From: Phycisphaeraceae bacterium
GTDB lineage: Bacteria; Planctomycetota; Phycisphaerae; Phycisphaerales; Phycisphaeraceae
Length of the DNA stretch: 64,000 bases
Assembly (NCBI GenBank): GCA_963674705.1
Contig: OY771506.1
Coordinates: 1,760,001-1,824,000, forward strand
Reading direction: 5' to 3'
Below the pieces are notes generated by a model, which worked only from the letters and a program-made list of their open reading frames with translations, was not told the DNA's origin and searched no databases. This document shows, in pieces, positions 37,019 to 61,664 of this stretch. A program made the translations under genes and the position numbers. The stretch's first letter is position 1; every line of letters starts with the position of its first letter.

Positions 37019-37060
37019 CCCCAATCCCCAATCCCCAATCCCCAATCCCCAATCCCCAAC
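37019..37060 (+). repeat. Tandem 7-mer (CCCCAAT)x5 plus one variant
   Basis: Counted directly. Confidence 0.9.
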
Positions 37061-37212
37061 AAATACCCCGGAAACTTGCACGAAATAAACTGGGATCACC
37101 CGATTAATTTAGTACAATGCGGTCTGCTGATTTGATGGTCCGGGTCGCCACCTCCGTCCGATCTATCGGAGGCATCCGCCGGGGCCGGGGTCTTATTGGA
37201 AAAGGGAACGAG

Positions 37213-43057: not shown

Positions 43058-43852
43058 TCAAAAAACCCGCTCCACCGCACCCGCCGCGATCAGCGCCGCA
43101 CCCAGCGCACCTGTGATCTGTGGCGTCTTGGGCATCACGATCTGCTTTTCAATCGCGTCGCTTAGCATCTTGTCCATCCTGTTGACGCGCGCTACGCCGC
43201 CGGTGAAAACGACGGGCTCTTTCAAGCGGTGTCCGCCCATGCCGGCGATGCGTCTTGAGATCGCGATCTGCACGCCTGCCGCGATATCACTTGGCTCATG
43301 ACCCGACGATAACAGGCCGATGATTTCCGTCTCCGCGAACACCGCACACATGCTCGATATCGTCGAGGGTTCTTTGCTTTGCGATGCGAGTTTGCCCAGC
43401 TCTTCAAGGTCTACATCCAAACGCTTGGCGACCATTTCAAGAAAGCATCCCGTCCCCGCGGCGCAGCGGTCGTTCATCGTAAAGTCTTCAACGCGCCCGC
43501 TTTCATCCAGGTGAATGACTTTCGAGTCCTGCCCGCCGATCTCGATGATCGATCTTGCATCGGGCAAAAGCATGCGTACGCCGCGCGCGTGGCAGGTGAT
43601 CTCGGTTACAGCTTTATCCGCAAAATCCAGCAGGTGGCGTGCGTATCCGGTCGCGACAACCGCTTCAATATCATCCAGAGACCTGTCGGCATCTTTGACC
43701 ACACGCTCGTACAACGCGCGCGACCGTTGTGCCTGGTTCGTCTGCGAATCATCAACGCCGCTTGCCAGAATCTCCGGCCCCTGGCCGTTCACCTCCAGCA
43801 ACACCACCTTGATGCTGCGCGAACCCGCATCGATACCCGCAAATAACATCAC
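43058..43852 (-). CDS. Acyl-CoA dehydratase activase (ASKHA ATPase, HgdC/BadF-like)
   Basis: GIDAGSRSIK, ATGYAR, EITCHARG, EIGGQDSK, NDRCAAGTG, SMCAVFAETE, FTGGVA. Confidence 0.93.
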   Translation of the reverse strand: MMLFAGIDAGSRSIKVVLLEVNGQGPEILASGVDDSQTNQAQRSRALYERVVKDADRSLDDIEAVVATGYARHLLDFADKAVTEITCHARGVRMLLPDARSIIEIGGQDSKVIHLDESGRVEDFTMNDRCAAGTGCFLEMVAKRLDVDLEELGKLASQSKEPSTISSMCAVFAETEIIGLLSSGHEPSDIAAGVQIAISRRIAGMGGHRLKEPVVFTGGVARVNRMDKMLSDAIEKQIVMPKTPQITGALGAALIAAGAVERVF

Positions 43853-45246
43853 TGCCTCCGCCCTCGCGCGGTTTCCATCAACGCCTCCAACCGCGTCCTC
43901 AGTGCCGGACGAACCGCATCAATCACAGTCGGCACCTCTACTTCAACAACAGGCAATCCCAAACCGTCACGCACCATCTTACCAATCACCTCGCCTTCAA
44001 ACGCACAGTGACTTGCGCCGGGGATTCGGCTGACGATCACCGCCTCGCAGCCGAACTTCTGAATCTCACGACAGATCATCCGCGCTCGATCGGCGGTCGG
44101 CCCAACCATCGGATCGCCCAGCGCCGTTCTCGCCAAGGCTTCAAAGGGTTCGACATCATCGGGGATCTGAGAAAGCGCGTGACAGAACATGTAATCCGTC
44201 CCGCTGATCCGCCCGCCGACTTCCTCAAGCAGGTTCATCACCTGAAGGTCCGCAACAGGATTCACCCAGAACACCCTGACCGCATCACCATCCAACACGC
44301 TGACATTCTGGTCAACGCGTCGCCTCGCCTCGGTTAGCAGTTCATCCAGCACCTCTACAGTCTGCTCGTAGTCGGAACAGTAATGTAGCGCAAGCATCTC
44401 CACTATGAGCATCTCAAGAGCGGGTAGCGGACACGGGTCGGAGGTATAAACCAGTTGCCGAAGCGAGCTGATCTTCTCGCGAACGGTGTTGGCTTTTCTT
44501 ATGCCCTCGGATAACTTGGCGCCGGTTAACGTTTGGCCCGTTGCTTTCTCGATTTCACCGGCAACACGCCTTAATTCATTACGCACCAAGTCGACTTGCG
44601 ATGATGCCGCGGTGAATCCGCTTGGTAATCGAACAGATGTTTCGTTAGCGCCCGCCAGTCGGCGCGGCGGCACTTCCCACCACAAGACCGGGTGTCCCAT
44701 CGCCTCGACGCGCTGCGCGATCGCGGAAAAATCATCGCACACCGCGCCGACGCTGCAGATAAGCAGGTCGGGTGTCGGGAAGTGGTTGCCCGTTTCAAAC
44801 GCGCCGACCATCGCACGCACCGGGCAGAACGATTCATCAATGCCCAGTTTATCCGCGACGCGCAGCAACCCCGCGCTGTGCTGCATCACGCACGGTATCC
44901 ACCACGCGCCGTCCGGATAGAACGTGGCCACGTTATCCAACGCGTACGCCATCACCGGCACCGTGCCCAGGTCCTTCATCGCGCCGATGATCGTCCGCCC
45001 GGCCTCGCGATCGGCCTGCAAACGATCTTCTTCACTCAATAGCAGATTCCACAATCGAAGCGCTGCCGGCGAATTGTCAAAACGCAACGACGCAAGACGC
45101 AGATCGCCATCCTCAAAGTGCCTGCCTAACGGGCCGTTGTAATCCGGGCCTGGCATCCCGGCTTTATATAAGCATTCGTAGCGTTCATCCCACTGCTGAA
45201 GCGTGATTGATTTAGGCTCATCCGAGATGTTGTGTTTCTCGTTCAT
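43849..45246 (-). CDS. 2-hydroxyacyl-CoA dehydratase family Fe-S protein
   Basis: FCPVRA, VCDDF, SHCAFE, LRTRLEALME; ATGA/TGATG coupling at both ends. Confidence 0.8.
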   Translation of the reverse strand: MNEKHNISDEPKSITLQQWDERYECLYKAGMPGPDYNGPLGRHFEDGDLRLASLRFDNSPAALRLWNLLLSEEDRLQADREAGRTIIGAMKDLGTVPVMAYALDNVATFYPDGAWWIPCVMQHSAGLLRVADKLGIDESFCPVRAMVGAFETGNHFPTPDLLICSVGAVCDDFSAIAQRVEAMGHPVLWWEVPPRRLAGANETSVRLPSGFTAASSQVDLVRNELRRVAGEIEKATGQTLTGAKLSEGIRKANTVREKISSLRQLVYTSDPCPLPALEMLIVEMLALHYCSDYEQTVEVLDELLTEARRRVDQNVSVLDGDAVRVFWVNPVADLQVMNLLEEVGGRISGTDYMFCHALSQIPDDVEPFEALARTALGDPMVGPTADRARMICREIQKFGCEAVIVSRIPGASHCAFEGEVIGKMVRDGLGLPVVEVEVPTVIDAVRPALRTRLEALMETARGRRQ

Positions 45247-46328
45247 CGCAACATCTCCAGGAATGCCGCGATGCGTCCCTCTGCGCGTTCGCATGTGGTG
45301 GCATCGACATCAAGGTCGATATCAATCACGGGGATCGGCGACAGTTGCTTGATGCGGTGCACCTCCGCGTGCCAGAGATCGCACCACAGACTTCTGCGCA
45401 GGATGATGCCTTTTACGTTGGTTTGTTTGATCGCATTAAGCAGCCAGTCGAAGAAGCGATCGTTCGGCCGTTGACGGATGTGCGGGATCTGCTGATAGGC
45501 GCTTGCCATCGCCTCGAACGGATCGTTATCGATCAGCGATTGGTCGATCGGTTCGGGCAGGCCGCGCTGGCCGTAGTCCGTTGCATCAAGCGCGACGTGG
45601 CCGCCGTGCTGCTTGATTGTGTCGAACAGCCACCACTGATAGCGAGGCAGCTCGGAACCAAGCAGGGCGATGGGGGTAGCAGATGAGTCCCGTGACTCCG
45701 TGGCGCGGGGTGCCACACTTTGACCCGAAGGGCAAAGTGTGTCTTCATGAGCACACTTTGCTGCTGCGCAGTCAAAGTGTGGCACCCGAGGCGCGCGATG
45801 CGCGTGTTCGGGTTTACCGTTGGTGTCACCATGCATTGCAGCTAAAGCCGTAGCGCGTTCCCGGCCGGTCATCGTTTGAAGTTGCATGCGGACGTCTTCT
45901 CGCTTGACTTCGTAAGCGATCAAGATGCTTTTCAAACGACCGGGCGTCGGTGATGTGCCGCCGATGGATTCGAGAAAGTTCCCGAGTCGATGCAGTTCAT
46001 CGCGATAACAACGCTGCGCTGATTCGCTCTGCCAGGTGGCCGGGATGTGCAGGAGCATTGTTGGTGTGTGATGCCTGCCGGGTGTATTCAATGCTTCACT
46101 GGAGCGTCGCAGTTGATCGCATATCGAAGCGACGATCACCGCTGCGACATTCTCGTGCATGGTTGCCTGTGTGATATACACCTGCGACCATGTGCAGCAC
46201 CCATCAACCGATATGGGTGCGCGGTTCTCATTGAATGGTTTGTGGTTGCACGGGCGGAACGGTTGAAAACCATGCGCCTCGATCCACTCGGGAGGGATGT
46301 ACGCCGAGTTGTAGCAGATTCGCTTCAT
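45243..46328 (-). CDS. 2-hydroxyacyl-CoA dehydratase family subunit carrying an in-frame repeat insertion
   Basis: YIPPEWIEAHG, SICDQLRR, WCDLW, GRIAAFLEML. Confidence 0.8.
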   Translation of the reverse strand: MKRICYNSAYIPPEWIEAHGFQPFRPCNHKPFNENRAPISVDGCCTWSQVYITQATMHENVAAVIVASICDQLRRSSEALNTPGRHHTPTMLLHIPATWQSESAQRCYRDELHRLGNFLESIGGTSPTPGRLKSILIAYEVKREDVRMQLQTMTGRERATALAAMHGDTNGKPEHAHRAPRVPHFDCAAAKCAHEDTLCPSGQSVAPRATESRDSSATPIALLGSELPRYQWWLFDTIKQHGGHVALDATDYGQRGLPEPIDQSLIDNDPFEAMASAYQQIPHIRQRPNDRFFDWLLNAIKQTNVKGIILRRSLWCDLWHAEVHRIKQLSPIPVIDIDLDVDATTCERAEGRIAAFLEMLR

Positions 46329-46349: not shown

Positions 46350-47591
46350 CTATGTTGGCTGTGCTGTCGGTCTTGTATTCACCATTTCGAACAATGCTTC
46401 AAGCCGTACCGCGATGCGCTGGCTGTCCGCCGGGGCGTAGTCTGTGACGATCTTCATGTAGGGCAAGCCGAAACGTTCTTCGCTCTGCTGCTTGAGTAGC
46501 GCCGCTTCGACTTCATAGGTCAGGCAGCCCTGCCAGATCAGTTCGACGATGCAGTCGGGTTTGTAGTCGTCAATCAACTTCTCGATCATGTCGAATCGCA
46601 ACGTGTTCGGCGTCATGACAGAACAGGGCAGGTGGAAGTACTTCTCAGCGAGCGCTTCCATCGGATCGGCGTCTTCACGCACATCATCAAGGATGGGTTT
46701 AAGCCCGGTGCAGTTTTCCATCGCAACGATGCGCCCACCGTTATCTTCGATCAGGTCGACGACGCGCTCCGCGCCGTGCGCGATGGGCACACCCGTGACG
46801 AGTACGCGCACTTCCCGGTTCTTGCTAGAAGTTTCGCCGCAGCATTCGGCGCTACCGAGCTTATCAAGGATGGTTTGATACTCGGCAAGGTCTTCGCATA
46901 TCCCGCTGATACTGCTCTTGAGATTAAGTAACTGTCGGCCGGTTAATGGCGGATTATCACGTTTCATCAATGCAGCAAGTTCGCGACGCAGGCGGCGCTC
47001 CTTGTTCATCAGCTCGATCGCGTCGCGGATCTTTTCATCCGTGATCTTGGTGTTGAACTGCTGTTCGAGTTTGGTTTTCAGTTTGTTCAGTTCGATGCGC
47101 CAAAGCGCAAGCGAATCGGGGTCGTCCGGCTTCTGTGGCAATTCAAGGATGTAGACCGGGCGAGATTCGGCCATCAGTTCGTACATCTTCTTCTTGCCGT
47201 CGCAGGTTGTTTCGGCAACGATGAGGTCCGCCATCTCGAGGAACGGATTGTTCTTCTGCATGTGATAGCCGAACGTGCTCTTGATAAGCGGGCACAACCC
47301 GGCGGGCAGAACGGACTCGGCGGCGAGCGCGGTTGTGTGTGATCCGCCACACAAACAGACGGGCACGGCTCCGGCGGCGAGGATCAATTCGCGTGGCGTG
47401 AACTCGCAGAGGATGCCGACGATCGGTTTACCATCGGCCTTGGCTCGCTCGGTGTAGGCCAAGCAGTTTTGGATCATATGGTCAAATCGGCAGGCGTTGG
47501 CGGCCGGGTTATCCACCACTGTTTGGGCGCACGCGTCTGTCGCGTTTGAGGTGCATGCGCACGGATTTGAACTCGGGCAGCAGTCGCTCAT
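46350..47591 (-). CDS. 2-hydroxyacyl-CoA dehydratase family protein, double-cubane-cluster reductase-like
   Basis: LCEFTPRELILAAGAVPVCLCG, LCPLIKS, ETTCDGKKKMYE, MENCTG, LPCSVMTPN, RLEALFEM; Cys-rich N-terminus. Confidence 0.85.
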   Translation of the reverse strand: MSDCCPSSNPCACTSNATDACAQTVVDNPAANACRFDHMIQNCLAYTERAKADGKPIVGILCEFTPRELILAAGAVPVCLCGGSHTTALAAESVLPAGLCPLIKSTFGYHMQKNNPFLEMADLIVAETTCDGKKKMYELMAESRPVYILELPQKPDDPDSLALWRIELNKLKTKLEQQFNTKITDEKIRDAIELMNKERRLRRELAALMKRDNPPLTGRQLLNLKSSISGICEDLAEYQTILDKLGSAECCGETSSKNREVRVLVTGVPIAHGAERVVDLIEDNGGRIVAMENCTGLKPILDDVREDADPMEALAEKYFHLPCSVMTPNTLRFDMIEKLIDDYKPDCIVELIWQGCLTYEVEAALLKQQSEERFGLPYMKIVTDYAPADSQRIAVRLEALFEMVNTRPTAQPT

Positions 47592-47593: not shown

Positions 47594-48403
47594 TCAGGCC
47601 TCCCGTTTGTGCGCGATGAAGCGCGCCTGGATGATCCGCTTCTCGTGCGCCAAGGTGCGCACAAACCCAAGCTCGCCGGCGATCTGCTGTAGCAGCGATT
47701 GATCGAAGCCGATGATCTTCAGCGCATCGTACGTCAGTTGTTTACTGACCATATCTATATAAAGATCGACATGCGGCGGGAACTGGCCGGTGTCGTCGGC
47801 TTCGAGGACGTCGCAGTTGTTGGCTTCAAGCAGATGCCGATAGTCATCGCATGTGGCGAAGGAGGGGAACTTCATGAAGGCGAGGAAACGCTGGGCCTGC
47901 TCATCAGACAAGCCGGCGGGGCCCTCGCACCAGTCGGTGAAGGCGATGGTGCCCCCGGGCTTGATAAGGCGAGTGGCTTCTTTTATAAGCGATGGTTTAT
48001 CATCAACATAGCACCACGCGTCCTCGCCCCAGACAAAGTCGAATTGCCCGTCGGGCAGGCCGGTATCGATCGCCTTGGCGAGTATGAACGTGGCCCGATC
48101 GGCGTAGCCCTCGTCGGCGCAGCGTTGCTTGCCGAGGTCGATCATGGCCGAGGTCATGTCGACGCCATGCATCCTGTCGACATCGCGGAATCGAAGCAGG
48201 AACCGCATGCCCGCGCCGCTGCAGCAGCAGAGGTCGACGCCGGTGGTTTGGGGCTTGATTTGGGCCTTTTCAGCGAGATGCATGGAGGAAGTCAGCCCGC
48301 CGATGTGGATCTGCTCGCCCATAAGCAGTTCCCAGAGCTTGCCTTCGGCCCCGCTGTAGACAGTTTGGATGTCGGATGATTGGATCGAGTCAAGTGAACG
48401 CAT
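47594..48403 (-). CDS. Class I SAM-dependent methyltransferase
   Basis: IHIGG, motif I VDLCCCSGAG, GVDMT, FDFVWGEDAWCY, IKPGGTIAFTDW. Confidence 0.9.
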   Translation of the reverse strand: MRSLDSIQSSDIQTVYSGAEGKLWELLMGEQIHIGGLTSSMHLAEKAQIKPQTTGVDLCCCSGAGMRFLLRFRDVDRMHGVDMTSAMIDLGKQRCADEGYADRATFILAKAIDTGLPDGQFDFVWGEDAWCYVDDKPSLIKEATRLIKPGGTIAFTDWCEGPAGLSDEQAQRFLAFMKFPSFATCDDYRHLLEANNCDVLEADDTGQFPPHVDLYIDMVSKQLTYDALKIIGFDQSLLQQIAGELGFVRTLAHEKRIIQARFIAHKREA

Positions 48404-48563
48404 GCTGGCTCCCGGGATTGATGCATGGTCGGAGTCGGTCCCGCCTCGGGGGATTGTACCAAGCTGCCGGCTATAAAGATATTGCTATCTGCAATAGGCG
48501 AGGCTATATTGGCGGGCATCTGAGACAGAGTCACGCATCAGTAAAACGAAAGGGGGCCGCAAC

Positions 48564-49967
48564 ATGCAACGTTTGATATGGTCATGCCTTACGGTGACGG
48601 CGGCGATTGTTGTATCCGCTGTGCCATCACCTGGTGGAGGCTCGGTAAGCGCAGCGGACGAAGCGCAGGGCGCGACGTGGCTGAGCTACTACCACAGCCA
48701 GGATGCCCGCAAGCGCCTAGGTTACGCGATCGGCGCGCGTGGGATGGAGATGACCGAGCAAAAGCCGGACGGTTTGAAACTGCCGGCGGACATCGGCGAG
48801 GACGTTCGGTACGGCAAGTGGGACACGCCGATGGATGAAGCGGGCTTCCGGTATGTGGCGCTTGCGCGCAGCGCGTACGGGCAGCTTTGCGATCAACTTG
48901 TCATCGATTCCGATGGTGACGGGCAACTCGATGATGAAACGATCTACGGCACGTACAACCTGCGTGTGTACGGCAGCGCGCGAGGTCGTGTGTACTTCGA
49001 TCCGGTTGCGATCGAACTTCAAACCGAAGACGGCCCGACGCTGTATCACTTGAACGTGAATGTGTATTGCGGCGGTCCCGGTTCGTACAACGTGACATAC
49101 AATGCGGGCGGCTGGTACCAGGGCACGGTGATGCTCAACGGCGAGCCGTTCGATTGCCAGCTATTGGACAACAACGCCAACGGCACGTTCAACGATACGT
49201 GCGAAGGTGATGAAGGATATGGCGACACCGATCGCGTTCGTTTCGGCGCTGCGAATACCGAAGCGATGATGACCGGGCATTACGTGAAGAACGCGGACAA
49301 ATTTTACGCGTTCAGTGCGGCGAAAGATGGCGCGTATGTTACGGTGAAAGATGCGGACGGTTTAGCGGTCGGCAAGATCATTGTGCCGGAGGACTTTGCG
49401 TTCGTGAAAGTGTTCGGACCGGAGGGTTCGTTCAACATCAAGGCCGACAGCGATCAGGAAGTGCCTTGCGGCGACTATCATCTTGTCGCCTGGCAGCGCG
49501 AGGTGAAAGATGTGGCCGGCAAAGACTGGCGCTTCAACGGCGGCGGTTTCCCGGAACATGAAGCGATTGAAGTTGGGACGGATGAGCCGGTCACGCTGGC
49601 GCTGAGCGATCCGTGGAACGCAAAGATTACGGATTATGAACGGCCCGGCCGACACACGTTCAACCAACAGATCACCGGACGCTACGGCGAACAGATCAGT
49701 GCGTCTTATTCCAACGGCGGCCGACCCCCGGCGCCGAGGATGCACATCGTCAGCGAGGATCAGCAGTACGAGCGGACGTTCAAGTTCGAGTATGGGTGAG
49801 GCGGGACCTGTTCGCTCTCATGGCGAGAGCCTTACAACCAGGTCGGCCCCTACACCGCAACCCTTCTGCTGGACTATCCGGTCCAGATCGAATGCGAAGA
49901 TCTGATCATCGGCAAAGCTGCTGAGGATGCTTCCGAAGCAGACAATGCTGTCACGTTGAATGAATAA
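48564..49967 (+). CDS. Exported protein, predicted selenoprotein (UGA at 49797-49799; FEYG-U-GGTC)
   Basis: Signal peptide; the frame continues 55 codons past the TGA to TAA at 49965-49967; motif and hairpin shared with the 56751 gene. Confidence 0.85.
49805..49844 (+). promoter_or_regulatory. SECIS-like hairpin
   Basis: GCTCTC(49814-19)-ATGGC-GAGAGC(49825-30) on a lower stem GACCTG/CAGGTC; loop starts 20 nt after the UGA. Confidence 0.8.
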
Positions 49968-50047
49968 CAGCGTGGCGGCTGTGCTGTGGTGTGTGCGGTG
50001 TGTTTGAACTTTGTCTGAATCTATCTATTCAAACGAAAGGGGGCGTT

Positions 50048-52450
50048 ATGCGGATGCCTCATCTGATACTGTTCGGATTGGTTTTGTTGTTGAGCGCGGG
50101 GATCGCGCGTGCGGCTGAGTCGGAAGCTGTTACGTTCAAGGGGCGGGTAGTCGACGTCGATGGTAAAGCGATCGGGGGCGCGGATGTTGTCGTGCTTGGT
50201 GCTGATATTGATTTGTTTGTTGGGCCGCAGACCAAGCTTATTGCGCAGACGAAGGCTGATGATGAAGGTGCGTTTAATGTGGCTTCTGAGTCGGTCGGTA
50301 ACTGCGAGCGGATTTTAGTCGCGGCACGACACGACGGGCTTGCGCTTGGTTCGTGGAACGGCGCGTTAAGTGAATTGCCCGAAGCGCTGACGTTGAAACT
50401 TGGCAGCGCGCAGACGATCGCTGGCACGGTCGTGGATGAATCGGAGCAGCCTGTCGCCGGGGCGACGATCAAGGCGATGCTGCGTTGGAACGATGGTGAT
50501 CACGTCAATTCGTTGATCGCACATGAAGCGATCCCCGAGCTGATTGTGAAGACGGATGATGCGGGGCGGTTTGAGTTTCAAGCGGTGCCTGAGGGGGCGG
50601 GCGCGATCATGGCTGTACAGGCCAAAGGTTATGCGACGCAGTTGAAGCCCGAGTCTACTTTGCAAGGCATACCCGCGGGGACGGCAGATACAAAGATCGT
50701 CATGCTAAAAGGCTCGACGATCAACGGCCGGGTAACAGCCAACGTTGAGGACGCGACGCTAAAAGGCCTTACAGTGGTTGGACAGTTCAACAGGTATCCT
50801 TACCTGACAGACGAACGTGCGGTGACGGATGCGGACGGCAAGTTCACGTTGACGGACCTGCCTGCCGGTGAAGTGAAGCTGATCGTTGTGCCCGGGAAGG
50901 TTGATCTGTCACAGGAACTAAGCGAAGCCGACCTGCCGTTTGCGTGTGTCGATGAGGTGAAGGTGGCCGGGCCTGGCAGCGAGCAGGATGTGACGCTGGC
51001 GCTTCAGCGCATGGCGATACTCGAAACGACCGTGATGAATCGTATGTCACAGGAGCCGGTTGCGGATGCGACGTTCCACTATGAGCATCGGCAGGACAAG
51101 CTGAAAAGCACGGTGCAGACGGATGAAAAAGGGAACGGTCGGGCGTTGGTGTTGCCCGGGCCTTACCTGGTTTATGCGGAGCATCCGGACTTTACGCGCA
51201 ACGGCGTTCGTCGGATCGTGACACTCGGTGAAGGTCAGACGATGCAGGTGCCGGTCGGCCTGGTGCAGGCGCAGATGTTGACCGGCACGGTGAAGGATGC
51301 GCAGGGCAACCCGATCAAGGACGCGAAGGTGGAGGCTATGCCTTCAAGTCAATATCCATCGGTCAAGACTGATGCGGATGGCAGGTTCAAGATGCAGTGG
51401 GAGCCCGCGAACTGGGGGCAGGACATCACATCACTACTGATCGTGCGTGATATGAAGAATGATCGGGCGATCGCGGTCCCGATCGACGATACGTTCAAAT
51501 CGTTCGACCTGACGCTACAAAAGGGTGCGTCGTTTACCGGGCGCGTTCTGACGGAAGAGGGCGAACCTTTAGAAAACGCGACTGTTTCAATTACCCTCTT
51601 CGGCGGTAATTGGGGCAGCAGTCTTTCCGGAGAGAACACGGTCCGTTCGGATGCGGACGGGCGATTCAAGGTTGTCGGCCTGCCGGCACAGGCTGGTTAT
51701 CACCTCTCGGCTACCGCGGATGGGTACGGCCAATTCACCTGGCGGTTCGACAACGTCGAGTCGACCGAGAATGTCCTGGATGATGCGAAGCTGCTCAAGG
51801 CCGATCAGACACTGACGGGCACGGTCGTGGATTCCAATGGCAAACCCGTCGCCAAGGCGCGCGTGCAGGTGTATGGAGACGACCAAGTCAACAAGAACGT
51901 TGAAGCCGATGACGAAGGTAAGTTCAAGATCGAAGGTTTGTGCAAGGGGTATGCGAACCTGTTCGTGCAGTCTCAGGGCGCGCCGCACATGTACGGCCAG
52001 TACTATGCGAAGGTGGATCAGAAAGAAGTGAAGATCGTGATTTCCGAGCAGGGGATGAACCAGGAGCCTGCGGCGGAAGTGATACCCGAATCGATTGAGG
52101 GACAGCAGGCGCCTGACTTGAGCACGTTGGGTCTTGAAACGGCGCCGGAAGGCAAGCCGGTGTTGGTGCTTTTTATAGATGCGAAGCAGAGATCCTCACG
52201 GCATGCGTTGTCTGATCTGCTCAAGAAGATGGGTGGCAGCAATAGCGCGCATGTCGTCGTTGTGCAGGTCGGTGAGGCGGATGATGCGTTGATCAAGGCG
52301 CAGAACATCAAGCTGCCGGTGGCGCGCGTGACGGAAGATGTGGAAGATGTATGTGTGAAGTGGGGCGTTCCGGCGGTGCCGTGGTACGTGCTGGCCGATC
52401 CGAAGGGGAACGTCGTGCACAGCGGCGCAACACTTTCAGCGGCGCAGTAA
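50048..52450 (+). CDS. Exported protein with repeated carboxypeptidase-regulatory-like beta domains and a C-terminal thioredoxin-like domain lacking CxxC
   Basis: Repeated GxVVDxxGxPVAGA...TDxxGRF units; C-terminal GKPVLVLFIDAKQRSS...WGVPAVPWYVLADPKGNV. Confidence 0.8.
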   Translation: MRMPHLILFGLVLLLSAGIARAAESEAVTFKGRVVDVDGKAIGGADVVVLGADIDLFVGPQTKLIAQTKADDEGAFNVASESVGNCERILVAARHDGLALGSWNGALSELPEALTLKLGSAQTIAGTVVDESEQPVAGATIKAMLRWNDGDHVNSLIAHEAIPELIVKTDDAGRFEFQAVPEGAGAIMAVQAKGYATQLKPESTLQGIPAGTADTKIVMLKGSTINGRVTANVEDATLKGLTVVGQFNRYPYLTDERAVTDADGKFTLTDLPAGEVKLIVVPGKVDLSQELSEADLPFACVDEVKVAGPGSEQDVTLALQRMAILETTVMNRMSQEPVADATFHYEHRQDKLKSTVQTDEKGNGRALVLPGPYLVYAEHPDFTRNGVRRIVTLGEGQTMQVPVGLVQAQMLTGTVKDAQGNPIKDAKVEAMPSSQYPSVKTDADGRFKMQWEPANWGQDITSLLIVRDMKNDRAIAVPIDDTFKSFDLTLQKGASFTGRVLTEEGEPLENATVSITLFGGNWGSSLSGENTVRSDADGRFKVVGLPAQAGYHLSATADGYGQFTWRFDNVESTENVLDDAKLLKADQTLTGTVVDSNGKPVAKARVQVYGDDQVNKNVEADDEGKFKIEGLCKGYANLFVQSQGAPHMYGQYYAKVDQKEVKIVISEQGMNQEPAAEVIPESIEGQQAPDLSTLGLETAPEGKPVLVLFIDAKQRSSRHALSDLLKKMGGSNSAHVVVVQVGEADDALIKAQNIKLPVARVTEDVEDVCVKWGVPAVPWYVLADPKGNVVHSGATLSAAQ

Positions 52451-52510
52451 CCACGAAAAGGTAATAAGTGTTTTTAAGCAGCCCCATGCGGGAGCGTGGG
52501 GTTGTTTTTA

Positions 52511-52652
52511 TTTAGCCACGAAAAGGCACAGAAGACACAAAAAGAGCTGGGTATTGGAATCTTTGGAAGCAGGGATATTCAGGCGGGTTTTCTGCGATAT
52601 AAAGATTATGAGATGGGGCTCGTTTTGTGTCTTCTGTGCTTTTTTGTGGCTG
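52511..52652. repeat. Inverted pair of repeat family D (TTAGCCACGAAAAGGCACAGAAGACACAAAA)
   Basis: Forward copy at ~52512, reverse copy at ~52623-52652; other copies near 59763 and 61788. Confidence 0.75.
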
Positions 52653-52789
52653 AAGTTCTGCTCTGCTTTTTGCCAGAAAAATGCACAAGAATCACAAAAG
52701 GGCGGGTGTTTGGAATCCGCGGAGCTTGGATTCATCAAGAGTACAAGTCTGTGTGTTCAACTTGGTATTGATTGAACTGTATGAAGATC

Positions 52790-52995
52790 GCCCCATAGGG
52801 GCGTCGGGTTGTAGCCACGGGTCTAGCGAAGCGTAACCCGTGGAAGTTAGTGTTATACATTTTACGTCGCCCCGGAAGGGGTGAAGGCGGTGTTCCTGCC
52901 ATCCCTGTCGGGGCGGAGCGGATTTATCACTATCTCATATCCACGGGTTACGCTGCGCTGCACCCGTGGCTACATGCTGTAACCCCTTCGGGGTA
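52790..52995. repeat. Composite inverted REP-like element
   Basis: tagccacgggt...cgtaacccgtgga near 52812 and tccacgggttacg...cacccgtggcta near 52940, with CGCCCC..GGGG hairpins. Confidence 0.65.
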
Positions 52996-53188
52996 TGCCT
53001 TGCTCTGTATCTGGGATAGTCTCAGGTTTTCTGAGATACAAGTCTTAGATTGCCGGCTACATTTTGTGTTTTCTACACTATTTTGTGGCTGAACTCCTGT
53101 TTCAAAGACTGACTTTTATGGCATACTCAGTACTGTATCCGTAGATACCGATAGGGTATGATGGTCAGACTTTCTGTGGAGGTTCGTC

Positions 53189-54604
53189 GTGACATCAGCG
53201 ATACATCGTGATCTGCTTCGACAGTTGCCTTCGGTTAATGATCTGCTGGCTGATGCGCGGACGGTCGCGTGGCTGGCGGAGCATCCAAGGGAGCTGGTGA
53301 CGGACTGCCTGCGTACGGCGGTGGATACGCTGCGCGAGCAGATCCTTTCCGACCAGGCTGGGCGGTGCGGGGTTCAGCATGTCAATATGGAATCGGTGCT
53401 CGACCGTGCGGAGGCCGAAGTCGCGAAGCGCACTTCGCCGAACATGCACGCGGCGATCAACGCGACGGGGATCATCCTGCATACGGGGTTAGGCAGAGCG
53501 GTGTTGCCAGCCCGCGCGGTCGAAGCGATCGGGCAGGAGTTGAAAGGTTACGTCACGCTTGCGGTCGACCGCGAGACGGGCGAGCGGATCAACCGCGACC
53601 AGATGGTCGAATCACTGCTATGCGAACTGACCGGCGCGGAGGCGGCGACGGTCGTGAACAACAACGCGGCGGGGACGATGCTCGTGCTTGCGGCGCTTGG
53701 CGCGGGGCGTGAAGTGATCGTTTCGCGTGGTGAGCTTATTGAGATCGGCGGCGCGTTCCGCCTGCCTGACGTGATGGCGCAGAGCCAGTCGAAGATGGTG
53801 GAGGTCGGCACGACAAACCGCACGCACCTGCGCGATTACGAAAACGCGATGACGGAAGACACGTCGCTTTTGTTTAGAGCGCATCCGAGTAATTACCGGA
53901 TCGTCGGATTTACGAGCGCGGTACCGATCGAATCGCTGGCGGAGCTGGCGCATGGGCGCGGGCTTGCGGTGGTGGATGATCTTGGCGCGGGGGCGTTGGT
54001 GGGGTTGGAGAAGTTTGGATTGCCGCACGAGCCGACGATGCGTGAATCGATCGAAGCCGGTGCGGATATCGTGCTGGCGAGTACGGATAAACTGATCGGT
54101 GCGGGGCAGGGGGGCGTGATCGTCGGCAAGAAAGAACTGATAAAGAAGATTAGAAAACATCCTCTAGCGCGTGCGATGCGTGTAGATAAGACCTGTTTGA
54201 TGGCGCTTGAGCGTACGCTGCCGCTATTCAGGGATATCAAGCTATTGAAGCGCGAGCATCCGACGTACATGATGCTGTCGTCGCCGATGGAAACATTGAC
54301 CGAGCGTGCGGAAGCGCTGGCGGCCGCGATCCGAAAGGTGTTGGCGACTGCTGAGGTCGAGGTTTGCGAGGATGTGGGATATCTGGGGTCGGGTTCGCTG
54401 CCGAGCGAGGCGCTACCTTCGATGGCGGTGCGTTTGCGCGTGGCTTCGATGAAGGTTGCGCATCTAGCCAAGGCGCTTCGGCTTGATGATGCGTGTGTGT
54501 TTACGCGTGTGACGGATCAGACAGTGGTGATGGATACACGCACGATCACGGATGAACAGGTGGAATTGATCGCCGCCGCGGTGAAGCGGTGCGTGGGATC
54601 GTGA
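53189..54604 (+). CDS. selA: L-seryl-tRNA(Sec) selenium transferase
   Basis: INATGIILHTGLGRA, VVNNNAAG, SRGELIEIGGAFRLPDVM, EVGTTNRTH, HPSNY, DLGAG, STDKLIG. Confidence 0.96.
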   Translation: MTSAIHRDLLRQLPSVNDLLADARTVAWLAEHPRELVTDCLRTAVDTLREQILSDQAGRCGVQHVNMESVLDRAEAEVAKRTSPNMHAAINATGIILHTGLGRAVLPARAVEAIGQELKGYVTLAVDRETGERINRDQMVESLLCELTGAEAATVVNNNAAGTMLVLAALGAGREVIVSRGELIEIGGAFRLPDVMAQSQSKMVEVGTTNRTHLRDYENAMTEDTSLLFRAHPSNYRIVGFTSAVPIESLAELAHGRGLAVVDDLGAGALVGLEKFGLPHEPTMRESIEAGADIVLASTDKLIGAGQGGVIVGKKELIKKIRKHPLARAMRVDKTCLMALERTLPLFRDIKLLKREHPTYMMLSSPMETLTERAEALAAAIRKVLATAEVEVCEDVGYLGSGSLPSEALPSMAVRLRVASMKVAHLAKALRLDDACVFTRVTDQTVVMDTRTITDEQVELIAAAVKRCVGS

Positions 54605-54763
54605 AGTGTTATACAAGTTTAATCCTCCGGATATGGGTGCCACACTTTGACCGCGCAGCGGCAAAGTGTGTGGTACGAAGCGCACTTTGCCCTTCGAGAT
54701 AAAGTGTGGCACCCGAAGGTGTACAAAACAGTTTGATGTATTAGTAACTTCCGGGGTGCGATT

Positions 54764-56707
54764 ATGCCTGATAAACATAAGAACATCATGCTTGGTACGG
54801 CCGGTCACGTCGATCACGGCAAGACGTCGCTGGTGAAGCTGCTGACCGGTTGTGATACGGATCGATTAGCTGAAGAAAAACGGCGCGGCTTGACGATCGA
54901 GCTCGGCTTTGCGCCATGCAAGATGACGGACGATCGGATCGTCGGCATCGTGGATGTGCCGGGGCATGTTTCTTTTATCCGGCACATGGTCGCGGGGGCG
55001 CATGGGGTTGATGTGATCATTCTTGTGGTTGCTGCGGACGACGGTGTGATGCCTCAGACGCGCGAGCATCTGGATGTGATGACGTTGATGGGGGCGCGTC
55101 GTGGGTTGGTTGCGCTGACGAAGATCGATCTTGTTGATGAAGAAATGCGCGAGCTTGCGATAGAGGATGTACGCGGCGCGTTGGCGGAGACGTTTTTAGC
55201 TGATGCGCCGATCTGCCCGGTATCGAACGTGACGGGCGAAGGGTTTGAAGGATTTTTCAAGGCACTGGATGAGCAGGTCGCGGCGTGCGAGCCGCGCGTT
55301 TCGTTTGGGCCTTACCGGCAGTGGGTGGAGCGGTCGTTTATCGCGCATGGTTTTGGCGTGGTCGCGTCGGGGATACCGACGACGGGGGAATTGAAGGTTG
55401 GGGAGTATGTGCGTGTTTTGCCGGGCGATCTGAAGCTTCGCGTACGGGGGCTGCAGGTGTATGGCGATGATGCGCAGGTCGCGCGGTTGGGCGAATGCGC
55501 TGCGGTGAACCTGGCGGATGTGGACCTGGAACGTTTGCCGCGCGGCGTGGTGTTGACGACCTCGACGACGCTTGGCACGGTATCGCAGTGCGCGGCACGT
55601 TTGCGGACGCTTGGGCGCTCGAAGCGAGCGCTTCGTGACGGGACAGAGGTGCATCTGCATGTAGGGACGGAGTATGTGCAAGCGAAAGTGATTGCGCTGG
55701 AAGGGGGTCCGATCGAACCGAGCGATGAAGCGCTGGTGCAGTTGCGATTTGAACGGGAGTTACCGGTTTCGCCGGGCGATCGGTTTGTTGTAAGGACGCA
55801 TGTTGAAGAAGCCGGCGGCTTGACGACGATCGGCGGGGGCGTGGTGCTGGACACGACGGATAAACGTATGCGGCGGAAGCGCGTGGAGGTATTGGAGCCT
55901 TTAAAGAAGCGTGAGGCGGCGCTGGGTGATCCGGCGGCATGGTGTTTGGCGCTGCTTGAGGAGGTGGAAGAGTCGATGACGGTGGAAGCGCTAGTGGAGC
56001 GCGCGGTGTTGCTTGAATGCGAGGTTGAGCCGGCGCTTGATGCATTGAAGCAGCGAGAGGATGTGGTGGCGCTGGATGATCGGCGCGTGTTGGCGAAGCG
56101 CGTGATCGAACGCGCGGGCGAGAAGATTGTTGAGCGGTTGCGTGAAGAGCATGCGGCGAATCCTGATAAGTTCGGCTTGACGACAGCGATATTGGTTAAC
56201 GCGCTTGAAATGGATGGGGATGTTGCTGCGAATGCGGTGGCGGGGTTGTGCGATAGCGGCACCATGACGCGGCAGGGGGAGTTGCTTGCGCTGGCGGAGC
56301 ATCGGCCTGCGATCAGCGCGGCGGATCAGAAGTTGCTTGATGCGATAGTTGATCTATATAAGAAGGATCACTTCGCGGCGAAGCGGCCGAGCGAGGCGGC
56401 GGAGGCGCTGGGCGAGCCGATGAAGCGCGTGCAGCCGATGGTGAAGATGCTGATCGAGCGTGGGGATCTGGTGAAGCTGACAGACCAGATCGTGATGCAT
56501 CGTGACGCGGTCACGGCGGCGGTGGGCGTGGTGCGGGATTTGTTTGAGAAGTCAGAGCGCTTTTCTACGGCCGAATTCCGCGATGCGCTGGGCGCAAGCC
56601 GTAAGTATGTAATCCCCTTGCTTGACTATTTTGACCACGAACGTCTGACGATCCGCCACGGCAGCGAGCGAAAGCCCGGGGCAAAGTTGCGGGAAGAGGT
56701 CGGCTGA
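54764..56707 (+). CDS. selB: Selenocysteine-specific elongation factor
   Basis: GTAGHVDHGKT, EEKRRGLTIELGFA, DVPGH, MPQTREH, TKID; C-terminal winged helix FRDALGASRKYVIPLLDYFD. Confidence 0.97.
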   Translation: MPDKHKNIMLGTAGHVDHGKTSLVKLLTGCDTDRLAEEKRRGLTIELGFAPCKMTDDRIVGIVDVPGHVSFIRHMVAGAHGVDVIILVVAADDGVMPQTREHLDVMTLMGARRGLVALTKIDLVDEEMRELAIEDVRGALAETFLADAPICPVSNVTGEGFEGFFKALDEQVAACEPRVSFGPYRQWVERSFIAHGFGVVASGIPTTGELKVGEYVRVLPGDLKLRVRGLQVYGDDAQVARLGECAAVNLADVDLERLPRGVVLTTSTTLGTVSQCAARLRTLGRSKRALRDGTEVHLHVGTEYVQAKVIALEGGPIEPSDEALVQLRFERELPVSPGDRFVVRTHVEEAGGLTTIGGGVVLDTTDKRMRRKRVEVLEPLKKREAALGDPAAWCLALLEEVEESMTVEALVERAVLLECEVEPALDALKQREDVVALDDRRVLAKRVIERAGEKIVERLREEHAANPDKFGLTTAILVNALEMDGDVAANAVAGLCDSGTMTRQGELLALAEHRPAISAADQKLLDAIVDLYKKDHFAAKRPSEAAEALGEPMKRVQPMVKMLIERGDLVKLTDQIVMHRDAVTAAVGVVRDLFEKSERFSTAEFRDALGASRKYVIPLLDYFDHERLTIRHGSERKPGAKLREEVG

Positions 56708-56750
56708 AAAGACATGAGATTTTATTGTATTATGTGGGTAAGCAACTACA

Positions 56751-58073
56751 ATGGTGGACAGTTGCCGCGGCGGTTTTGCCGTGATTCCGAAAGGGTTTTT
56801 TGTGATTGTATTACGCCGATTAGCCGCTGCGATGTTGCTGGCCGGCGGTGTAATTGTGTGTGCGGATGTGCAGGCGGAAATCAGTTTCCGTGCTGCTGAC
56901 CCGAGGGCGACGTTATGCCACGCGCCGCGTGTGGTGGATACGTTCACAGCATCATCGGCGGGGAGGCTGAGCAGTTCGGCGGTGGTGGGGACATTGAATA
57001 CACATTACGGGCCTATCCATGTCGCGATCGATCCGCGCGGCACGAGTGAGCCTTACAACGTGACGTTTGATTTCACCGGCACGGGCAGGTTTGAAGACCC
57101 GACCGAGGTGCGCGTCATCGCACGCAAGCATGGCGACTACTTCTGGGGTGAGTTGACGCCGACGGTCGTGGAACTTTCACGTGGCGGGCATAAGATCAGC
57201 GTCGGCATCATGGGGATGGTGTATCGCTCAAGCGACAGCCAATCGGTCGATGTGATGTTCGGCGCCATGATGGAAACGTCGTGTGCGTTCGGCTCGCAGA
57301 CGCTTGATGTCGACATTATGGACGGCGATCAGAACTTCTACTTTGGTGATAAGTCAGCAAAGCGCGGGTTCAAGGTCGAGGTCGGCGACACACTGGTTGT
57401 GCATAAGGACAATCAACGGTACATGGTTTTGGTCGGCCAGCCGGTGCAGATCGATGGTGCGTGGTACGACATCGTCGTGCATGAAGATTATTCACTTGAA
57501 GCGAAGCCTGTGAATATCACGGTGGGCAAGTTACAGATCGATAAGGGCGACTGGTCCGCGATCTTTGTCGGCAGGCGGTATGTCTGCGGCGCAAAGGGTG
57601 GGACGGAGGCGGTCACGCTGCCGGCTGATTCTTACACCATCGTGCGCTACGATGAACGCAGCGGCACCGCGATGGTGTCGTGTCAGAGTGATAACGGCCC
57701 GAGCGCGTCGGTGCAGGCTGGACAGACGGCGCAGGTGAGTATCGGCACGCCGATCGCGGGCATCCCGGTCATGTTCCAGCAGGGCGATACCGTCAGCATC
57801 CGCGCGAAGATGATCGATTCAAGCGGGATGAACGTGACGGAACTTCGGCTTGAAAGTGGATTGCGTCCGGAGCCGCCTGTCGTGGCGGTGTTTGATAGTA
57901 GCGGTCACGTGCTGCATCAGGCCGCACTGGAATATGGGTGAGGTGGCATATGTTCGCACTCATGGCGGGTGCCATCCAATGCAGGCCGGGGCGGATCGCT
58001 GACAGCGGTCATGAAGTACGAGGCGAAGCCGTTCACGGTCAAGCTCGGACGGACGGACTTCAACGTGCGCTGA
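56751..58073 (+). CDS. Exported protein, predicted selenoprotein (UGA at 57939-57941; LEYG-U-GGIC)
   Basis: Lies between selB and selD; signal-peptide-like N-terminus (true start may be ~56802); frame continues 43 codons past the TGA; motif and hairpin shared with the 48564 gene. Confidence 0.85.
57956..57972 (+). promoter_or_regulatory. SECIS-like hairpin (apical part)
   Basis: GCACTC(57956-61)-ATGGC-GGGTGC(57967-72); same loop and same 20-nt distance from the UGA as at 49814. Confidence 0.8.
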
Positions 58074-58167: not shown

Positions 58168-59748
58168 ATGAAAATTGACTACACCAAGCGACGCCAGGTG
58201 ATGGCCCGATCGCGCAAGCTCGGGCATTGTATTTGTGATCCACGCAGGCCTTGCCCGTGCGATGTGTTTACCGAGCAGGGCATCTGCCCCTGTGCCGGGG
58301 AAAGGCCGGACCCGATCCCCGCCGATCAGGTGAAGCTGACGGACCTGGTGCGCAACGCAGGTTGTGCATCGAAGATTGCGCCGGGCGATCTGGATACGGT
58401 GTTGTCGCGCTTGCCGGAGATCACGGACCCGCGCGTGTTGTGCGGCGTCGCGGCGGGGGACGATGCGGGTGTGTATCAACTCGATGGCGAGTGCCTGGTG
58501 CAGACGGTTGATGTGATGACGCCTTGCGTAGACGATGCGCGGATGTTCGGGCGGATATGCGCCGCCAATTGCGTGTCGGATATTTATGCGATGGGCGGGA
58601 CACCACGTTCCGCGCTGAGCGTTCTTGCTTTCCCGACAGAAACGCTTTCCGGGCAGATCATGTACGAGATGATGAGCGGCGCGATGGAAGTGCTGGCAGA
58701 AGCAGGTGTCGCGCTGATCGGCGGGCACAGTATCAAGGACGAGCAGATCATGCTCGGCTTTGCGATCACCGGCACGATCGACCCGAAGCGCGTCACACAG
58801 CGCGGCACCGCGCGCGTCGGCGATGTCCTGGTACTGACCAAACCGCTAGGCACGGGCGTATTGAACTTTGCACGCCAGATCGGTAGAGCGCCGCAGGAAG
58901 GTTTAGCACAAGCGGAAACCTCAATGGCGACGCTTAACCGTGCGGCCGCGGAAGCCATGGTGCAATGCGATGCCTCTGCATGCACGGACGTCACCGGTTT
59001 TGGTTTGTTCGGCCACCTCGCGGGCATGGTCCGTCACTCCAAAGTCACCGCCGAGATCGACCTGGATACGCTTCCTTCTTTCGATGGCGCACTCGATCTG
59101 TTGGCAAGCGGCATGATCCCCGGCGCGGTCGAGCGTAATAAAGAATACGTCGGCGATGATATTATTTTTGCCGAAGATGTGGATGAACCACGCCTGCACC
59201 TCGGATTCGATGCGCAGACGTCGGGTGGTTTGCTGATCGCGGTCGAGCCGAAGCACGTGGATGAATTGCTAAAAATGCTATCCGCTGATGGCGTGACGGG
59301 ATACGCTGTCGGGCGAATCACCGAAAAGTCGGACGGCCGGATTGTGGCTCAATCCATGGGGGCGACGGTCACAACGCCGGCGGCAAACGAAGCCGAAGAA
59401 GTTGTCGCTTCGCACGCTGCCGTGCAAACACACGAAGCTGTGCCCGTCGGCATCGGTGAATCCCGCCGCGCGTTCGGCGCATTGATGCGCTCGACATCGC
59501 AGGCCGGCACGATCGATGAGAAGACCAAGACACTGATCAACATCTCCCTCGTGACATTGCAGCGCTGCGGCCCCTGTTTGAAGTCACACCTCGGCAAGGC
59601 ACAAAAACTGGGCATCGATGAGAACCGCATCGATGAAGCCATCTGGTGCGCGATAGCGATGGGCGGCGCGTGCGTGAAGGTGTTTTATGATGAGTTTAAG
59701 CAGAATGAATCCGGCGGGGGTGATGGTGGAGTGTATTCGTGTTGTTGA
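58168..59748 (+). CDS. selD: Selenophosphate synthetase (Cys form) with a Cys-rich N-terminal extension and a C-terminal CMD/AhpD-like domain
   Basis: AGCASK, DDAGVY, QTVD, ANCVSDIYAMGG, GGHS, LTKPLGTG, TDVTGFGLFGH, DAQTSGGLL; extra terminal domains read from the translation. Confidence 0.95.
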   Translation: MKIDYTKRRQVMARSRKLGHCICDPRRPCPCDVFTEQGICPCAGERPDPIPADQVKLTDLVRNAGCASKIAPGDLDTVLSRLPEITDPRVLCGVAAGDDAGVYQLDGECLVQTVDVMTPCVDDARMFGRICAANCVSDIYAMGGTPRSALSVLAFPTETLSGQIMYEMMSGAMEVLAEAGVALIGGHSIKDEQIMLGFAITGTIDPKRVTQRGTARVGDVLVLTKPLGTGVLNFARQIGRAPQEGLAQAETSMATLNRAAAEAMVQCDASACTDVTGFGLFGHLAGMVRHSKVTAEIDLDTLPSFDGALDLLASGMIPGAVERNKEYVGDDIIFAEDVDEPRLHLGFDAQTSGGLLIAVEPKHVDELLKMLSADGVTGYAVGRITEKSDGRIVAQSMGATVTTPAANEAEEVVASHAAVQTHEAVPVGIGESRRAFGALMRSTSQAGTIDEKTKTLINISLVTLQRCGPCLKSHLGKAQKLGIDENRIDEAIWCAIAMGGACVKVFYDEFKQNESGGGDGGVYSCC

Positions 59749-60253: not shown

Positions 60254-61114
60254 TTATTTGCCGGGCACGGGTTGGGGTGGGTTTGCTTCTGGGGTCTTCG
60301 GGGTTTTGCCGGCGACAGTCAGTGTGATGGCGGGGCAGTTGGTGCATTCCATGCAGCGGATGCAGGATGCGTTGTTGATGGATTGATCGAGTTTGACATC
60401 GTACTTGCATCGGCTGCGGCAGAGGTTGCATTCGGTGCACTTGGGGGCGTTGTAGTGCAGGTAGAGGAGGCTGAATCGGTTGAAGATCGCGAAGATGCCG
60501 CCGAGCGGGCAGAAGATTCGGCACCACGGGCGGTAGGTGAAGAAAGCTAAGAAGAGGACGACGCCGGTGACGATGAGTTTGATCGTGTTGGGGATGAACA
60601 GTTGTCCGCGATAGATTGATTGGCCAAGCGCGGCTTCGAGCGCGCCGGCGGGGCAGACGTTACAGAAGAAAAGCGGGTGTTCGTCGCCGAAGAAGAAGGG
60701 GATGAGCAGGACGAGTCCGATGAGCGTGACGAATCGGCCGTAGCCTAGCCAGCTTGGGATGGAGTATTTGGGTGTGGGGATTTTCCCGAGCAGGTCCTGG
60801 AAGAAGCCGAAGGGGCATGCCCAACCGCAGACGGCTGTGCCGAAGATCCCGCCGACGGTGATCAGCACGCCGAGGATCATCAGCGGCCACATGTGCATCG
60901 CGGCGAACTGCGACATGAGCCCAATCGGGCAAGCGACTGTTGCGAGCGGGCATGCGTAGCAGTGGAAGACGCAGCCGGGCACGGAATGCCAACGCAGTAG
61001 AAGTGGGTCGAGCCAGACAGCGAGAAAAGCGGTCTGCACCCAGGGGCGTAGTTTGCCGAGGTTCAGTCGGCGACGGGGGATGTTTGGTTTGGATGATTCG
61101 GCCATGGCACGCAT
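60254..61114 (-). CDS. Membrane 4Fe-4S binding protein (NapH/MauN/CcoG-like)
   Basis: CYACP, CGWACPFG, FCNVCPAG, WCRIFCPLG, CTECNLCRSRC, CIRCMECTNCP; TM helices. Confidence 0.9.
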   Translation of the reverse strand: MRAMAESSKPNIPRRRLNLGKLRPWVQTAFLAVWLDPLLLRWHSVPGCVFHCYACPLATVACPIGLMSQFAAMHMWPLMILGVLITVGGIFGTAVCGWACPFGFFQDLLGKIPTPKYSIPSWLGYGRFVTLIGLVLLIPFFFGDEHPLFFCNVCPAGALEAALGQSIYRGQLFIPNTIKLIVTGVVLFLAFFTYRPWCRIFCPLGGIFAIFNRFSLLYLHYNAPKCTECNLCRSRCKYDVKLDQSINNASCIRCMECTNCPAITLTVAGKTPKTPEANPPQPVPGK

Positions 61115-61136
61115 GACCCGGCGGGGGTCACTTCAC

Positions 61137-61571: not shown

Positions 61572-61664
61572 CGGAGGTGCATGGGAATCGAACCCACCCG
61601 GGACCGTTAAAGCCCCACACTGGTTTTGAAGACCAGGAGCGTCACCAGACCGCCGATCACCTCC
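61572..61664 (-). tRNA. selC: tRNA-Sec (anticodon UCA)
   Basis: GGAGGTGA TC GGCGGTCTGGTGACGCTC CTGGT CTTCAAA ACCAG, long variable arm, GTGGG TTCGATT CCCAT GCACCTCC G; CCA not encoded. Confidence 0.96.

Follow-up and report, generated by a model that had tools for sequence, protein, structure and literature searches.

A window of 64,000 nt from a Phycisphaeraceae bacterium (assembly GCA_963674705.1, contig OY771506.1, forward strand, positions 1,760,001 to 1,824,000) contains two open reading frames, ORF A and ORF B, which represent a real, large and apparently undescribed family of probable exported selenoproteins. As had been stated in a preliminary description of this DNA, both ORFs seem to end at EYG-TGA and yet the frame runs on: beyond the TGA, ORF A continues as GGTCSLSWREP for 55 more residues to a TAA at 49965-67, and ORF B as GGICSHSWRVP for 43 more residues to a TGA at 58071-73. 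For ORF B, the GTG at 56802 is the likely start rather than the ATG at 56751, because AAAGGG lies upstream of it and a signal-peptide-like stretch follows. The claim that the similarity of the two proteins crosses the stop also stood. BLASTP detected similarity around the UGA only (E 9e-8); in the family alignment A and B are full-length paralogs with about 17% identity, and the family profile, of which both sequences are part, covers them over their full length (E 2.6e-158 and 5e-118). Within the 5.54-Mb genome, the pattern YG[UC]GGxC occurs at two places only, which are ORFs A and B. The genes for selenocysteine (Sec, U) insertion were found nearby as described: selA, selB and selD passed their NCBIfam cut-offs, and selC encodes a tRNA-Sec(TCA) (Table 1).

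The codon at the site was studied in proteins and in DNA. YG is the end of 11 out of 14 homologs of A; of the other three, P0009 reads YGCGGTCSLSWREP, one stops after PDQ, and one is a fragment. An off-frame viral query at locus L001 was discarded. A profile search gave 3,006, 1,761, and 415 clusters at E-values of 1e-3, 1e-10, and 1e-30. For the DNA, three tests were made. (a) A profile spanning the site was compared with 401 genomes of the phylum and matched 113 of them; 150 places out of 200 were listed and counted by eye. Among these 150 matches, 127 have one TGA, five have two, and 18 have none; the last group consists of five Cys forms, ten copies without U and C, and three partial matches. 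(b) A pattern leaving the codon free, which fixes part of the hairpin described below and therefore favours SECIS-bearing genes (SECIS, selenocysteine insertion sequence), gave at least 139 distinct matches: all 129 family members read TGA, and the 10 non-members have other codons. (c) Ten database proteins that end at YG were aligned, and of the 213 metagenome loci matched by this alignment the best 80 were analysed. The 77 loci (69 distinct) which are readable past the codon all have TGA. Each of them has a 6-bp hairpin, and a Cys follows at +4 in all but one, where it stands at +5. Homologs ending with TAA or TAG, or a lack of conservation past the codon, had been named as findings which would speak against a selenoprotein; the former occur neither among the 77 loci nor among the 150 genome matches listed, and conservation past the codon is strong.

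The predicted sequence motifs were borne out in part. TGA or Cys is found at the site as expected, with conservation beyond it, but GG..SW is not constant: the subfamily PDQ-U-GPDC-xLSRRE (25 of the 77 metagenome loci, counted by eye) keeps only U, the Cys at +4, and the stem. Likewise, the U and the +4 Cys of the proposed UxxxC motif hold, but distant members deviate, giving a spacing series of U-GGT-C, U-GPD-C, U-GGYW-C and vicinal C-U, C-C, and U-U. The U-U form results from TGA-TGA (S-U-U-G; L031, L211, L212, L213, and L214 in genomes G122, G287, and G345), and homology extends past both codons. The C-U subfamily has a bulged hairpin with covarying CGC/GCG and CAC/GTG arms. Cys homologs at the aligned site are rare (P0009, L014, L017, L215, L218, and L219). 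Judged from these sequences, the chemical constant of the family is U plus a second chalcogen nearby, and neither GG nor SWR appears to be a functional constant.

That gene callers truncate the family, as had been suggested, is illustrated by the best 150 profile matches in the database, of which 126 end in YG (116) or FG (10). The same number would result if the UGA were a true stop, or were read as Cys or Trp, with the downstream conservation stemming from a separate element; the outcome of single-sequence folding, which was not significant, fits this reading as well. We consider it extremely unlikely: the codon is never TAA or TAG, the Cys homologs P0009, L014, and L017 align through the site, and a stop would cut the predicted C-terminal sandwich ahead of its last strands. 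Moreover, ordinary genes of the window end with TGA, among them selA, selB, and ORF B itself.

Insertion of Sec is further supported by the hairpins following the UGA codons. The preliminary description had reported 6-bp stems with an ATGGC loop, 14 nt past each UGA, and two stem changes between A and B, all of which we confirmed. The exact geometry is found at three of the 197,757 TGA triplets of the genome, two of which are those of ORFs A and B. With 6 bp, a loop of 5 nt, a distance of 20 nt from the UGA, and minimum free energies of -11.2 and -14.7 kcal/mol (41 nt), both elements lie within the SECIS limits applied (stem 4-16 bp, loop 3-9 nt, 16-37 nt from the UGA, energy ≤ -7.5). A covariance check, which had been recommended, was positive: in 16 sequences, 96 of 96 cells are paired, and two-sided changes occur in four of the six pairs. 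None of 500 shuffles equalled the score for pairing and covariation, a test which is inflated by the relatedness of the 16 sequences; slid controls pair to 26-68%. All six pairs are complete in 125 of 128 scorable pattern matches, which comprise 24 stem/loop variants. The stem is kept where the encoded residues differ (LRWPE, LTWRE, LSRRE) and has decayed in Cys forms (two of six pairs in L014, three of six in L017). As the stem outlives residue changes and decays in Cys forms, SWR is largely a footprint of the RNA; the retention of SWR without Sec in P0009, P0050, and P0124 qualifies this view. According to the available part of PMC13188914, the published bacterial SECIS loop consensus has a G within the first two loop positions, which is the case for the GUGGC loops found in 100 of the 128 matches.

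Sec machinery is common in the phylum, selA being present in 288 of the 401 sampled genomes. It was found in 108 of 113 family-positive and in 180 of 288 family-negative genomes, which are kin and therefore not independent. A TGA form in genomes lacking selABC, the third finding named as adverse, was not observed: of the 82 genomes for which a TGA match was listed, 81 have selA and the exception, G063, has selB over the cut-off, such that selA or selB is present in 82 of 82. In G063, one contig (C294) carries two selB-like genes which both pass the cut-off. Neither selA nor selB is present in G072 and G225, two genomes with the Cys form. A search for tRNA-Sec across genomes did not separate tRNA-Sec from other tRNAs. 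Carriers belong mostly to Planctomycetota (Phycisphaerae, Sedimentisphaerales, Pirellulales) and Verrucomicrobiota; single records are from Kiritimatiellia, BRC1, Hydrogenedentota, Riflebacteria, and Acidobacteriota. None of 15 genomes of the same family and order has selA or the protein family, and the GC content is flat over the locus, giving no compositional sign of recent transfer. In the genome under study, FdhA and MvhD were not found among Sec clients, and none of 17 AhpC/TSA matches contains a stop. No other Sec client was found in coding scans, which were loose and one of which missed ORF B; among 200 loose candidates, which include all three genes of the island, no other motif was recognised by eye. 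Tentatively, ORFs A and B plus the small CxxU protein described below are the sole Sec clients of this genome.

Secretion is suggested by N-terminal hydrophobic segments; such a segment is present in 129 of 138 single-unit homologs, and one more has a later one. Note that export was called by a hydropathy heuristic, not by a signal-peptide predictor. Predicted models are all-beta (predicted local distance difference test 95.1 for the whole chain and 92.5 for its last 112 residues). The model of the C-terminal domain contains no helix and forms a seven-stranded sandwich of the immunoglobulin (Ig), fibronectin type III (FN3) or macroglobulin (MG) type, with U in a loop before the strand that starts at or near the Cys. 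Its fold neighbours are of FN3/MG type with generic scores (Z 7-8.2); the best match is 4eq3 (Z 8.2, root-mean-square deviation 3.3, 95 aligned residues), and 4zjg and 4u48 score Z 7.3. The full-length model gave no match in the PDB (template modelling score ≤0.17), matches being almost only to the C-terminal domain and the N-terminal 300 residues barely tested, and a sequence search of the PDB found nothing at E <0.06. Weak MG2 matches occur in 14 of 92 members (best E 0.00078); for ORF B, MG2 (PF01835) was rejected, as 17 bits compare with a gathering score of 32.8. The ESM Atlas contains clusters without names, in one of which 38% of members have GEVED; the domain-only search gave one match at 0.85.

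The Sec domain is mobile. Its N-terminal parts comprise about 50-700 residues, it is fused to M56 peptidase (P0021, P0050) or CarboxypepD_reg repeats (P0059, P0112, P0154), and read-through frames of up to 577 residues contain F5/8 and LamG domains past the UGA. In 18 cases (L063, L064, L072, L073, L075, L076, L080, L082, L084, L087, L106, L121, L123, L124, L138, L141, L062, L097), a membrane domain of 5-8 helices (about 220-280 residues) follows; the tails of L062 and L097 are of a distinct type with a DVCC motif. The one tail searched has no Pfam match, and a DsbD-like Cys pair was not found in the tails, which have one semi-conserved Cys. This all-beta, multi-domain build with its LamG, F5/8, and CarboxypepD_reg fusions, a DxNxNGxFxD motif in 107 of 138 homologs, and the existence of tandem paralogs and U-less copies would suit structural or adhesin modules of the surface, with Sec in a fixed Se-S bond or cross-linked to partner proteins. 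A purely structural bond does not explain, however, why Cys seldom takes the place of Sec (five Cys forms among the 150 matches listed), and we regard this role as very unlikely.

Table 1. Features of the window; positions are counted from the first nucleotide of the window
Feature	Position	Strand	Remarks
ORF A	48564..49967	+	467 aa when read through; N-terminus resembling a signal peptide, then ~300 aa all-beta, then Ig/FN3-like C-terminal domain bearing putative Sec412-Gly-Gly-Thr-Cys416
In-frame TGA, ORF A	49797..49799	+	putative Sec412
SECIS-like hairpin A	49814..49830	+	GCTCTC-ATGGC-GAGAGC
ORF B	56802..58073	+	423 aa from likely GTG; paralog with putative Sec380-Gly-Gly-Ile-Cys384
In-frame TGA, ORF B	57939..57941	+	putative Sec380
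SECIS-like hairpin B	57956..57972	+	GCACTC-ATGGC-GGGTGC
selA	53189..54604	+	TIGR00474, 518.6 bits, cut-off 267.9
selB	54764..56707	+	TIGR00475, 305.6 bits, cut-off 242.25
selD, Cys form (NAGCASK)	58168..59748	+	Cys-rich N-terminal extension; C-terminal CMD/AhpD-like domain; over NCBIfam cut-off
selC, tRNA-Sec(TCA)	61572..61664	-	
Protein of 800 aa with seven CarboxypepD_reg repeats	50048..52450	+	homolog beside family genes in 11/68 contigs
NapH/MauN-like membrane 4Fe-4S protein (Fer4_5)	60254..61114	-	homolog in 11/68 family contigs
S-adenosylmethionine-dependent methyltransferase	47594..48403	-	divergent from ORF A; homolog in 9/68 family contigs, always with double-cubane cluster
Double-cubane-cluster reductase	46350..47591	-	NF040772, 418 bits, cut-off 350
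Two more HGD-D family genes	43849..46328 (45243-46328, 43849-45294)	-	below NF040772 cut-off
ATP-dependent activase	43058..43852	-	TIGR00241
Small membrane-anchored protein, 120 aa	61128..61490	-	candidate CxxU selenoprotein ending Cys-Pro-Thr-TGA-Val-Lys-stop; TGA 61137-61139
7-bp hairpin GGTCATG-CGTGC-CATGGCC	61100..61118	-	loop 25 nt past the TGA of the CxxU gene; overlaps start of NapH-like gene

The neighbourhood was compared in 68 contigs carrying the family. Within 6 kb, a sel gene was found in 25, the double-cubane cluster in 13, and a NapH-like gene in 11 of them, numbers which are lower bounds, as many contigs are short. No metal transporter, ABC transporter or MerB-like lyase is among the recurring neighbours, and the window does not contain a double-cubane fusion joined by UGA. 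The double-cubane cluster has been tied to selenium by genomics: in the available part of Haft and Gwadz (10.1101/2022.07.06.499078), 955 of 970 high-scoring NF040772 proteins are in SelD-containing assemblies, and the available part of PMC10418091 points in the same direction. A DUF3034 protein stands beside family genes in four contigs (L067:3384-4427, L071, L127, L137). In the window, a DDE transposase gene (42027-42920) and selC bracket the cluster; a sigma-54 activator without N-terminal sensor domain (62208-63191) is divergent from selC and was not seen in the 68 related contigs. At 35819-38544, two surface proteins of PEP-CTERM type are encoded, of which one is an SBBP beta-propeller. 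The SelD of the window ends SCC-TGA, and no hairpin was seen past that TGA; its Cys-rich extension is also found in L095. The stretch AAACGAAAGGGGGC precedes the starts of ORF A (48543-48556) and of the CarboxypepD_reg gene (50031-50044) alike and is probably a ribosome-binding leader.

A further UGA was found in the gene of a small membrane-anchored protein located between selC and the NapH-like gene. All 18 distinct homologs which reach the end read C-x-T-TGA; one or two more residues follow, and the terminating codon varies (TAA, TAG or TGA). Four weaker matches end short of the motif. In 14 of the 18, a hairpin whose loop is 5 nt long lies 19-25 nt downstream. These loci (L008, L063, L065, L073, L080, L082, L093, L101, L121, L197-L203, L205) are often just upstream of a NapH-like gene. 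The protein has no NCBIfam match, and no Cys form was seen among its homologs. It is likely a selenoprotein and represents a second candidate family.

With moderate confidence, we propose that A and B are exported selenoproteins whose Sec, in an exposed loop of the predicted Ig-like domain, cycles with the nearby Cys and thus forms an extracytoplasmic selenol-thiol redox site. This proposal is based on a two-chalcogen site of variable spacing, its location in an exposed loop, and the rare replacement of Sec. The DNA provides an in-frame UGA, a conserved hairpin, and a complete selABCD set adjoining. The hairpin is almost certainly read by SelB, leading to the insertion of Sec. Export would very likely proceed via the N-terminal signal peptide, and members with the 5-8-helix tail would be tethered to the membrane. 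In the predicted Ig/FN3/MG-like fold, Sec is placed in a hairpin loop. There, U and the nearby C (or a second U) would probably form a reversible selenylsulfide or diselenide, which would act on an extracytoplasmic substrate (S-S, Se-S or oxidised selenium) by reduction or exchange. Re-reduction from the membrane, in loci having the genes, might perhaps be accomplished by the NapH-like ferredoxin and the small C-x-T-U protein, which is speculative. Equally speculative and somewhat more doubtful is the last step: in loci like that of the window, the product could be a selenium compound handed to the cytoplasmic methyltransferase and the double-cubane reductase. The genomic tie of the double-cubane cluster to selenium is the hint of a selenium substrate.

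Several observations weigh against this model. On their own, the hairpins show no unusual folding stability (z -1.40 and +0.95, 54 nt), and the minimum-energy fold of B uses a different pairing; as single-sequence folding is not significant, the case for the hairpin rests on covariation. The AUGGC loops of the window, which occur in 28 of 128 family matches, have no G at loop positions 1-2 and a G at the third. The Cys forms L215 and L219 of the vicinal subfamily keep the stem of their subfamily, and Cys forms also exist in the selA-positive genomes G262, G345, and G363. The U-bearing L007, L024, and L049 have no downstream Cys, and ten paralogs lack both U and Cys, which implies a non-catalytic role of the domain as well. 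The model places U in a two-residue turn and the Cys three rungs down the hairpin; if this is correct, the two may be too far apart to react without movement. The C-x-T-U protein was found in 12 of the 401 genomes compared with 113 for the exported family, and the NapH/CxxU and double-cubane genes accompany only a minority of loci (11 and 13 of 68). Finally, no known oxidoreductase fold was matched.

Metal-binding Ig folds (CrdA, FtrA/P19, superoxide reductase) are among the fold neighbours, at generic scores. Rather than cycling electrons, an inserted U and the C might be ligands of a soft metal or metalloid (Cu, Hg, As) at the cell surface, either in a chaperone or in a sensor domain belonging to fused M56/BlaR1 proteases. 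The C-C, C-U, and U-U variants resemble the CU/CC motifs of Sao proteins, which the available part of 10.1101/2022.07.06.499078 proposes as metal ligands, and P0021 and P0050 are M56 fusions. However, P0050 has lost both residues, the near-invariant columns contain no conserved His, Met or third Cys, and the recurring neighbours lack a metal transporter; we judge metal binding unlikely. Less probable still is that the Gly-flanked U is a covalent carrier arm which captures selenium or sulfur species for import to the double-cubane/methyltransferase cluster. A parallel is SoxY, whose GGCGG arm is a covalent carrier. The contexts YG-U-GG and GGC-U-GGG, the tight linkage to selABCD and double-cubane genes, and the tentative lack of other Sec clients in this genome would agree with such an arm, but the PDQ-U-GPDC subfamily drops the glycines and keeps the Cys, the motif is internal and not a C-terminal arm, and most loci are without the cluster.

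If the redox-site proposal is correct, the family adds a new scaffold to selenium redox chemistry, and its natural C-C/C-U/U-U series allows one to ask what is gained by Sec compared with Cys. Database clusters in the hundreds to thousands appear to be cut at their active-site codon, and long downstream domains end up as genes of their own. The existence of the family would also account for the use of Sec in a phylum in which selA is common and which is unmentioned in the reviews searched. Decoding of tandem UGA from one hairpin would make a test of SelB, and the locus is a lead on the link between double-cubane proteins and selenium. A wider and doubtful possibility is a whole undescribed selenium system of anaerobes of the Planctomycetes-Verrucomicrobia-Chlamydiae (PVC) group: a very large exported family based on an Ig fold in place of thioredoxin, with natural tandem Sec-Sec from UGA-UGA, wired to the membrane by the C-x-T-U protein and the NapH-like ferredoxin, and supplying double-cubane reductases with selenium compounds; the three genes would then be maybe the sole reason why Sec machinery was kept here.

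In agreement with the initial impression that the family was not a recognised one, A, B, the Sec domain, the membrane tail, and the CxxU protein match no family in Pfam or NCBIfam (20.0, June 2026), and a comparison by name and motif with the 119-family catalogue PMC13188914 (2026) gave no match. A literature search found no description, supplements and some selenoprotein work of 2025-2026 being outside its coverage. OS_HP2, the best selenoprotein match among 92 members, was rejected, as it reached only E 0.059 and its model finds nothing in this genome. The bacterial thiol-disulfide oxidoreductase selenoproteins (Trx, DsbA-like, DsbG-like, TlpA, Prx-like) in Table 1 of PMC13188914 likewise have an in-frame UGA next to a coding hairpin, a Cys close to Sec, and few Cys homologs; neither UxxxC nor UU is in that table, the nearest motifs being LULAxC (TsoA) and UxxxxU (TsoB). 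In contrast to those enzymes, our family has an all-beta model and no family match; a thioredoxin fold, in which U/CxxC stands where a helix begins, was dismissed, as the domain model has no helix. The SAO system, as presented in the available part of 10.1101/2022.07.06.499078, likewise comprises exported selenoproteins with CU/CC motifs which are truncated in databases and often stand beside double-cubane reductases and their activase. The family described here differs in having no Sao family match and no ABC transporter or MerB-like lyase neighbours, and in occurring in PVC phyla. The MG2/MG1 domains of bacterial alpha-2-macroglobulin and FN3 domains resemble the predicted seven-stranded sandwich, but scores are generic and below the Pfam cut-off. 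The N-terminal domain of DsbD is an Ig fold whose redox-active Cys pair sits in a hairpin. It shares with our family the extracytoplasmic Ig-like domain and the two-chalcogen hairpin site, and some members of the family are likewise joined to a multi-helix membrane domain. It differs in that no match to its Pfam family was found at E 0.1 in 92 members, DsbD is not among the best 50 fold neighbours listed, and the tail has one Cys and not a pair. By analogy only, the family may work like the N-terminal domain of DsbD, to which it is unrelated by these tests.

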